From Candidatus Parcubacteria bacterium (GTDB lineage Bacteria; Patescibacteriota; Patescibacteriia; SG8-24): a DNA stretch of 17,441 bases. The translations under genes were made by a program, and so were the position numbers. The notes under the pieces are model-generated. The model was not told where the DNA came from. It was given only the letters and a program-made list of their open reading frames with translations, and searched no databases. Location of the stretch: contig JBEEJS010000048.1 in assembly GCA_041169025.1 (NCBI GenBank), forward strand, positions 1-17,441, given 5' to 3'. The stretch's first letter is position 1. Each line of letters begins with the position of its first letter. Shown here one piece after another: positions 8,554-9,062 of the stretch.

Positions 8554-8593
8554 ACGAAAGCCGACCGCTGCATGCGGTCGGCTTTTCCTTTTG
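8554..8593 (+). repeat. 40-bp exact direct repeat, copy 1; also a rho-independent terminator hairpin for the LOG/SLOG pair
   Basis: acgaaagccgaccgctgcatgcggtcggcttttccttttg is identical to 9023-9062. It has a 9-10-bp stem (agccgaccgc/gcggtcggct), loop tgcat, and a T-rich tail. Confidence 0.8.
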
Positions 8594-8612
8594 CACCATG
8601 TGTCTACCGTCA

Positions 8613-8641
8613 TTGACAAAACAGGGAGTCCGTGGTAACGT
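8613..8641 (+). promoter_or_regulatory. Candidate sigma70 promoter with extended -10 for the RHH gene
   Basis: aTTGACAa (8613-8618), a 17-bp spacer ending in TGg, and TAACGT (8636-8641), located about 25 nt upstream of the RBS and ATG at 8666. Confidence 0.45.
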
Positions 8642-8665
8642 CCCCGGCACGAAAGGAAACGCGCC

Positions 8666-8962
8666 ATGAGTAACGAATCGGAACGGAATGACAAGCCGAC
8701 GTTCATCAAGATGAAAAGCGAACTGCGGGCAAAGCTCCGGGACGCGATACTGCGGACGGGCGCGACGAGCGTCACCGAAGCGCTCCGACACGCGACCGGA
8801 CTGTACCTCGCCATCGCGAGCACGCTCCGCTTCGGCACGCTGCTCGACGTATCAAGGGTCCGCCTGGATACCACCGCGACATCGTTGTCCGTGATCATTC
8901 CGATCAGGCCCGGCACGCTCCACCTCGTCCCCAGGACGGAGGAGGTCGATCTCACGCGCTGA
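8666..8962 (+). CDS. Ribbon-helix-helix (CopG/Arc/MetJ-like) DNA-binding protein, 98 aa
   Basis: aaaggaaa RBS upstream of the ATG at 8666. The N-terminal segment PTFIKMKSELRAKLRDAILRTGATSVTEALRHATGLYL fits a beta-strand, helix, GxS/T, helix RHH pattern. The C-terminal 50 aa are unassigned. Confidence 0.5.
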   Translation: MSNESERNDKPTFIKMKSELRAKLRDAILRTGATSVTEALRHATGLYLAIASTLRFGTLLDVSRVRLDTTATSLSVIIPIRPGTLHLVPRTEEVDLTR

Positions 8963-9022
8963 TCGTCCGACCGTGCCCGTACTCCGCGAACGCGATCGCG
9001 CGGCATCAGGAAGACGCGAAGA

Positions 9023-9062
9023 ACGAAAGCCGACCGCTGCATGCGGTCGGCTTTTCCTTTTG
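9023..9062 (+). repeat. 40-bp exact direct repeat, copy 2; terminator hairpin for the RHH gene, partly bidirectional toward the convergent permease gene
   Basis: Identical 40-mer to 8554-8593. Its flanks differ immediately outside the 40 bp. Confidence 0.8.

Follow-up and report, generated by a model that had tools for sequence, protein, structure and literature searches.

How did the same 40 bp come to lie, base for base, on both sides of a single small gene? The question is raised by a 17,441-bp stretch of DNA (the window), which is the whole of one contig of an NCBI metagenome-assembled genome (MAG) labelled 'Candidatus Parcubacteria bacterium'. A terminator-like hairpin occurs there twice, once after a tandem pair of SLOG genes and once beyond the 3' end of a convergent ABC transporter operon, and an open reading frame of 98 codons (ORF98) lies between the two copies. 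The two copies derive from a copying event. What was copied and in what direction is a matter of more graded confidence, and we tentatively favour the insertion of a small gene cassette at a terminator that was already present.

A perfect direct repeat with sharp edges

The two copies of the repeat are as follows.

8554-8593, + strand: repeat copy 1; stem 8556-8568 / 8574-8586, loop TGCAT 8569-8573, tail CCTTTTG 8587-8593
9023-9062, + strand: repeat copy 2, identical to copy 1; hairpin 9025-9055

The 40-mer, ACGAAAGCCGACCGCTGCATGCGGTCGGCTTTTCCTTTTG, is found on the + strand at both positions with 0 mismatches between the copies, just as a preliminary description of this DNA had reported. The copies are in direct orientation, 469 bp apart, with 429 bp between them. 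Dinucleotide-preserving shuffles did not reproduce such a match (0 of 200), and the 17.4-kb window holds no third copy at up to 3 mismatches; the two known copies are thus neighbours. The preliminary description also held that identity ends at the edges of the repeat, and this was borne out. The adjoining bases differ on the left (c and a) and on the right (c and t), and local alignment of the 150-nt flanks of the two copies gave scores at the level of shuffled sequence both upstream (13 versus 12.3 +/- 2.2) and downstream (8 versus 9.5 +/- 1.7). Because the adjoining bases differ and the flanks align at the shuffled level, we regard the repeat as real and sharply bounded.

Could two terminators have reached the same 40 nt independently? 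We searched for the 23-nt core of the hairpin, which contains about 14 independent positions once stem complementarity is allowed for. Among 185,579 species genomes (596 Gb, a set that the source MAG lies outside), the core was found only in 2 unrelated single hairpins with other flanks, and collections of metagenome contigs and viral contigs, which likewise lie apart from the source MAG and its sample, gave 0 matches. Chance or convergence was therefore rejected: the core is seen twice in 596 Gb, yet here the identity extends over the full 40 nt at a distance of 469 bp. The earlier judgement that independent terminators were unlikely to have converged is upheld, and the two copies go back to a copying event with sharp limits. 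This origin and the anatomy of the locus are what the sequence shows. Rfam gave no match in the window, and plasmid and phage DNA gave none to 8540-9075.

The repeated unit is one predicted terminator

The repeated unit coincides with one complete predicted Rho-independent terminator. Read in order, the 40-mer has a short A-rich lead-in, then a GC-rich stem of 13 bp capped by the TGCAT loop, and finally a T-rich tail. On its own it folds at -24.5 kcal/mol, with the 13-bp stem closed by the 5-nt TGCAT loop. When folded with their flanks and compared with shuffles, the copies gave z = -4.5 and -5.4, and no shuffle folded equally well. The tail after the stem, TTTTCCTTTTG, has 8 T in 11 nt, and the tail that the hairpin has on the - strand, CGTTCTTC, is weaker. 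A consensus terminator scan calls copy 2, and copy 1 is the same 40 nt.

The placement of both copies is that of a predicted terminator. SLOG2, the second gene of the SLOG pair, ends in a TGA, and copy 1 begins 4 nt further on. Copy 2 begins 60 nt after the TGA of ORF98 and lies 65 nt from the stop of a convergent ABC-2 permease gene, and so sits between ORF98 and the convergent ABC transporter operon. Further pairing is possible between the flanks of copy 2 (CGCGAA/TTCGCG), which was considered as a clue to the original copy and dropped. Since 7% of random flanks and 16.5% of shuffled versions of its own flanks were equally stable, this pairing is uninformative on the age of the copy.

The copies enclose a self-contained expression unit

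The 429 bp that separate the copies are self-contained, with a promoter, a ribosome-binding site and a 98-codon open reading frame of their own.

8613-8641, + strand: predicted sigma-70-like promoter; -35 TTGACA 8613-8618, 17-nt spacer, -10 TAACGT 8636-8641
8653-8657, + strand: ribosome-binding site AAGGA, 8 nt before the ATG, as read from the sequence
8666-8962, + strand: ORF98, 98 aa, NCBI MEY4722812.1 'hypothetical protein'

The promoter motif was checked against the rest of the window. TTGAC-N17-19-TANNNT occurs 5 times versus 0.23 expected (about 20-fold), in every case just upstream of a gene.

2133-2161 (-), 2757-2785 (-), 6747-6775 (+), 8613-8641 (+), 16970-16998 (+): TTGAC-N17-19-TANNNT sites

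Because the motif is enriched and always lies upstream of a gene, 8613-8641 is a credible promoter type for this organism. A consensus promoter scan picked up only 6747-6775 among the five motif sites, and missed the other four because their -10 boxes are weak (TAACGT, TACCCT).

ORF98 has G+C fractions of 0.57/0.48/0.82 at codon positions 1/2/3, and the third-position value (GC3) of its neighbours is 0.75-0.89. Its codon log-likelihood is +0.21 and is positive in its own frame only; 2.3% of off-frame windows reach this value. By these measures ORF98 looks like a real gene with native composition, and its host-like codon usage would therefore place the origin of the cassette in this lineage and not in a distant donor.

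The product of ORF98 is an orphan in every collection searched. Among 5.8 billion protein clusters it found only itself, and among 1.84 billion representative proteins it found itself and one spurious match to a repeat protein, with no homologue. The best Pfam match was DUF6380 at E = 0.077. NCBIfam, PADLOC and PHROGs gave nothing significant, a phmmer search of PDB sequences gave unrelated proteins at E of at least 0.54, and all Foldseek matches of the predicted model to the PDB had E of at least 3. The single-sequence AF2 model has a mean pLDDT of 51.5, with a strand at 12-15 and helices at 18-31 and 36-42/44-53, where pLDDT is 57-71. ORF98 would thus start with a beta-alpha-alpha pattern, as an RHH protein does, and 'RHH' is a guess. 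Since no family or structure match accompanies this pattern in a low-confidence model, we consider the RHH label unsupported. The preliminary description had placed only an RHH gene with its promoter and ribosome-binding site between the copies; the small gene and both signals are there, and the RHH identity, which has no homology behind it, falls away.

The arrangement recurs in three assemblies

We compared the window, in which the locus and its neighbours carry locus tags RLZZ324_324 to _326 (proteins MEY4722811 to MEY4722813), with other assemblies. JGI contig L001 (sample 3300043432), which was assembled independently, matches window positions 1-9733 with 1 mismatch in 9733 nt and carries both copies. 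Logan k=31 contig L008 (run SRR35181043, 3509 nt) corresponds, by its length and its end, to window positions 5075-8583 and is identical over the 3000 nt aligned, 5584-8583; it ends 30 nt (k-1) inside copy 1. This is exactly the end that a de Bruijn graph would give by branching at the left edge of the repeat, where the first 31-mer has two predecessors. Because L008 ends at k-1, the reads themselves must contain the repeat, with 8554 as its left edge. Three assemblies (the window, L001 and L008) thus support the arrangement. Exact-protein look-ups for further sequence of the organism returned only the same JGI contig, or nothing.

The repeat lies at a plastic junction

The genes on either side belong to two converging transcription units.

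6822-7676, + strand: first gene of the LSDAT_prok/SLOG tandem pair
7755-8549, + strand: SLOG2, second gene of the pair; Pfam PF18171 E = 7.7e-6, MEY4722811.1, GC3 0.88
9128-9901, - strand: ABC-2 permease; Pfam PF01061 E = 1.8e-36, MEY4722813.1, 257 aa

The SLOG transcription unit ends at copy 1, and a GST / ABC ATPase / ABC-2 permease operon, in which the permease comes last, runs towards copy 2 from the other side. We inspected seven relative loci, in which amino acid identity is at most 50% for SLOG2 and at most 76% for the permease. The SLOG pair is kept in distant relatives (L004, L006 and the contig of P0004), where other genes flank it, and the GST-ABC operon is kept in relatives L009 and L010. 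The gene next to the 3' end of the permease differs in each of 4 relatives, and the gene downstream of the SLOG pair differs in each of 3. Because the neighbour differs in every relative, the junction is a plastic spot. No direct repeat comparable to the 40-mer pair was present in the 4 relative loci scanned, the terminators that follow the permease in L009, L010 and L012 bear no relation to the 40-mer, and among the SLOG2 and permease relatives we found no sister genome close enough for a comparison of the cassette.

The following was also observed at these loci. The two SLOG paralogues share a 108-nt stretch that is 72% identical, and the pair has no match in PADLOC or NCBIfam. In L009, among the closest relatives sampled, the ABC operon ends with a terminator that is unrelated but similar in style, AAAGCCCTCC-AAGC-GGAGGGCTTT (6818-6843), which resembles the window hairpin at 5813-5838, and one TGCA-loop terminator is present in L009 at 12138-12157.

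A possible cassette insertion at a terminator

How might these parts have been put together? The reading that we favour, to which we assign somewhat less than an even chance, is that the cassette entered at a terminator that was already in place, and that this terminator was duplicated in the process, as for phage morons or the promoter-early stem-loop (PeSL) cassettes of T4-type phages. Ancestrally, a single terminator would have stood where the SLOG operon (+) and the convergent GST-ABC operon (-) meet. One recent recombination at this terminator would then have inserted the 429-bp unit plus a second terminator copy. A possible route is one crossover in which a small DNA, circular or linear, that carries the 40-mer and the cassette recombines with the resident 40-mer, as in the PeSL scheme. 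In the resulting arrangement, copy 1 would end SLOG transcription and shield ORF98 from read-through, and copy 2 would end ORF98 and probably the convergent ABC operon too. The ancestral state, the insertion event and these functions are what we infer from the anatomy of the locus. With perfect direct repeats of 40 bp on either side, the cassette would be expected to drop out again through recombination or replication slippage, and one terminator would then be left.

Several observations argue for such an insertion. The copies are exact and sharply bounded, the repeat is a terminator unit, and the copies are adjacent and only two in number in 17.4 kb. What they enclose is a full expression unit with orphan cargo of host-like composition, at a plastic junction, and the arrangement is present in three assemblies. 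By analogy, ORF98 may be compared with the cargo of PeSL and moron cassettes, which is orphan as well (PMC2839356).

Six points weigh on the other side. (i) The single-terminator ancestral state is in none of the relatives inspected, and because no relative has it, the direction of the event is inferred. (ii) The copy count of the 40-mer holds for the 17.4-kb contig and not for the whole genome. (iii) A crossover requires a donor, that is, a 40-mer present elsewhere, which shades into the possibility of a dispersed repeat. (iv) With 40 bp, the repeat is close to the minimum length at which homologous recombination is efficient. (v) The terminator role of either copy is predicted, and nothing shows termination in vivo. 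(vi) The three assemblies may share the same reads.

A possible dispersed hairpin and the shared TGCAT loop

Unlikely, though far from negligible, is that the 40-mer is a dispersed miniature mobile terminator hairpin, similar to repetitive extragenic palindrome (REP) elements, and that two neighbouring intergenic spacers gained copies independently around an orphan gene that was already there. The unit has the properties of such an element: it is 40 nt long, palindromic and sharp-edged, and lies extragenically downstream of genes or between convergent genes (PMC12306157; PMC3733652). The branch in the Logan graph at 8554 would also be expected from further copies elsewhere in the sample. Set against this, only two copies are present in 17.4 kb and these are adjacent, and the 23-nt core is absent from the 185,579 species genomes, bar the 2 unrelated hairpins, and from the metagenome and viral collections. 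The unit, which starts with AC and ends with CCTTTTG, has no GTAG/CGTC tag; CGTC precedes copy 1 only, and AAGA precedes copy 2. Among the window open reading frames scanned with Pfam there is no transposase or RAYT.

Two further hairpins in the window bear on the same question.

16925-16955, + strand: third terminator hairpin, with the C-TGCAT-G loop, AAAG...CTTTT ends and a different stem, followed by a promoter of the same type
12186-12212, - strand: fourth terminator hairpin; C-TGCAT-G loop on an unrelated stem, after a vault-protein-like gene

The C-TGCAT-G loop is thus common to four hairpins, three of them independent (8556-8586, 9025-9055, 16925-16955 and 12212-12186). CTGCATG occurs 9 times in the window versus 2.65 expected, a count that 0 of 200 shuffles reached, and 4 of the 9 occurrences are these loops. 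The hairpin at 16925-16955 is 65% identical to the 40-mer over 40 nt and has in common with it a 12-nt centre, CGCTGCATGCGG. The loop and end architecture that both additional hairpins share with the repeat would be expected of a dispersed element. Their stems differ, however, hence they are not copies of one element. The third hairpin with a tgcat loop and a different stem had been noticed in the preliminary description, and the loop recurs in the fourth. The hint of a hairpin family that was drawn from it holds for the loop and the A/T flanks, which are shared; the differing stems make poor evidence for a mobile family. We read the shared loop as a lineage-specific terminator architecture.

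Other hairpins of the window were recorded alongside these. The - strand terminators at 148-122 and 2206-2182 have the loops TTCAT and CATGT, and CATG lies in or beside the loop of 6 of the 7 strong intergenic hairpins. Directly after the terminator at 16925 there is an AT-rich perfect palindrome, TTGTCAAT ACAT ATTGACAA (16957-16976), which overlaps the next -35 box and looks like a putative operator.

Insertion of a cassette at a terminator and dispersal of a REP-like hairpin, the two alternatives named in the preliminary description, are not exclusive of one another: a homologous crossover needs the 40-mer on the incoming DNA.

Other explanations

The remaining explanations are less probable still. 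One that we consider improbable is a cassette system based on terminators, with the 40-mer as its recombination site. Self-contained orphan genes would then enter and leave terminators as small circles, and the chromosome would have its own counterpart to the PeSL shuffling of phages. As a variant, the 40-mer would be a mobile 'portable terminator'. In either variant the C-UGCAU-G loop of the four hairpins would be recognised by a dedicated protein, in an uncultured host that is reportedly a member of the candidate phyla radiation.

We likewise give little credence to gene conversion between different terminators, or to an artefact of assembly or population structure in which a chromosome with one terminator and a 469-bp circle or strain variant were collapsed into one sequence. 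A conversion tract could be seeded by the common architecture and the 12-nt centre shared by the 8554 and 16925 hairpins, but it needs longer homology than 40-mers that are 65% identical and would not stop at the edges of the terminator. As for a collapsed assembly, a graph at k=31 cannot separate the linear arrangement from a chromosome plus a circle, whereas the window and L001 pass through both copies with unique flanks; this last argument presumes that k-mers or reads longer than 40 nt were used for those two assemblies.

The least probable of the explanations that we weighed is that the 40-mers are the attL and attR cores of a site-specific integration, with the 429 bp a decayed remnant and ORF98 a leftover Xis/CopG-type gene: sharp-edged direct repeats around foreign-looking orphan DNA are an outcome of integration, the repeat starts just after a gene end as in elements that restore the 3' end of their target, and ORF98 has the weak beta-alpha-alpha pattern, but the window contains no integrase or other mobile-element gene, the insert is only 429 bp, an extra large deletion step would be needed, ORF98 is host-like in GC3 and codon usage, and there is no PHROGs, phage or plasmid match. 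An old tandem duplication was rejected outright: no similarity is left between the flanks although the 40 nt match perfectly, and the window holds no paralogue of the cassette. Rejected on anatomy were an integron attC, the target-site duplication of a transposon and a cDNA insertion: attC boxes and a recombinase are missing, the repeat measures 40 bp and the promoter is inside the insert.

Other features of the contig

The contig encodes an 860-aa protein (12230-14812, - strand) with major vault protein domains (MVP_shoulder E = 8.5e-21, Vault_3 E = 4.3e-13), here on a bacterial contig, and also a MerR/TipAS regulator (15029-15784), a GST, an ABC-F protein and an aldehyde-dehydrogenase-like protein. 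The G+C content of the window is 64%, which is above that of most described Parcubacteria. Because of this high value, it may be worth checking how the MAG was assigned taxonomically. The named homologues of the SLOG and permease proteins include those of Patescibacteria MAGs, one permease match is from Candidatus Eisenbacteria, and most homologues are unnamed.

Significance

If insertion of a cassette at a terminator is the correct explanation, the locus is a clean and recent case of a lineage-specific orphan gene that was placed in a chromosome with its neighbours undisturbed. The gene would have come with its own promoter, the duplicated terminator would insulate it on both sides, and the repeats would make the insertion reversible. 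A mechanism documented mainly in T4-type phages would thereby extend to a cellular genome. If the 40-mer is instead dispersed, there would be a REP-like family in this lineage, in which we know of none described. On the present data this is one locus on one metagenome-assembled contig, and its practical weight is therefore small.

Comparison with known systems

Four known systems place small genes or hairpins in comparable settings. Integron cassettes are like the unit described here in that small, often orphan open reading frames lie between repeated hairpin-forming sites, and a circular integron intermediate inserts at such a site. The attC site is an imperfect palindrome of 57-141 bp with RYYYAAC / GTTRRRY boxes and extrahelical bases, and cassettes near intI are usually promoterless. 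We rejected an attC identity for the 40-mer, which is a 40-nt unit with a perfect 13-bp hairpin and no R'/R'' boxes, next to a gene with its own promoter in a window without recombinase or integrase. A GTT stands at an edge in copy 2 alone, as part of GTTCGCG, a misfit to GTTRRRY; copy 1 has GCACCAT there.

REP elements are extragenic palindromes of 20-40 bp that occur in high copy number, often as inverted pairs, and carry an unpaired GTAG/CGTC tag (PMC12306157; Di Nocera et al. 2013, PMC3733652). Like the 40-mer, they lie downstream of genes or between convergent open reading frames, possibly with a role in termination or mRNA stability. In contrast to REP elements, the repeat described here has two known copies in direct orientation, no tag and no RAYT seen, and its canonical T-tail is that of an ordinary intrinsic terminator.

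Phage morons are likewise autonomous units of promoter, open reading frame and terminator between unrelated transcription units, with cargo whose function is not known. Morons lack conserved bounding repeats and are thought to insert by illegitimate recombination (PMC2839356, discussion). Here, unlike in morons, a perfect 40-bp repeat bounds the unit and the composition is host-like.

PeSL cassettes resemble the locus in having a repeated terminator-like stem-loop motif on both sides of a single small ORFan (PMC2839356, Arbiol et al. 2010; PMC4122927, Comeau et al. 2014). Phage phi1 has a single PeSL at the place where phage RB49 has an ORFan between two of them, and mini-circles have been shown to form (PMC2839356). 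Recombination between flanking PeSL copies excises or inserts the ORFan together with its own expression signals (PMC2839356). PeSL motifs are about 100 bp long, comprise a promoter and a stem-loop, occur many times in the hyperplastic regions of phage genomes and resemble one another without being identical. The repeat described here is a 40-bp terminator alone, is identical in its two known copies and lies in a bacterial chromosome; the promoter at 8613-8641 is outside the repeat and follows copy 1 only, with nothing comparable after copy 2. Measured against these systems, the locus is an example of a known arrangement, either a repeat-bounded, self-contained orphan cassette or a REP-like terminator.

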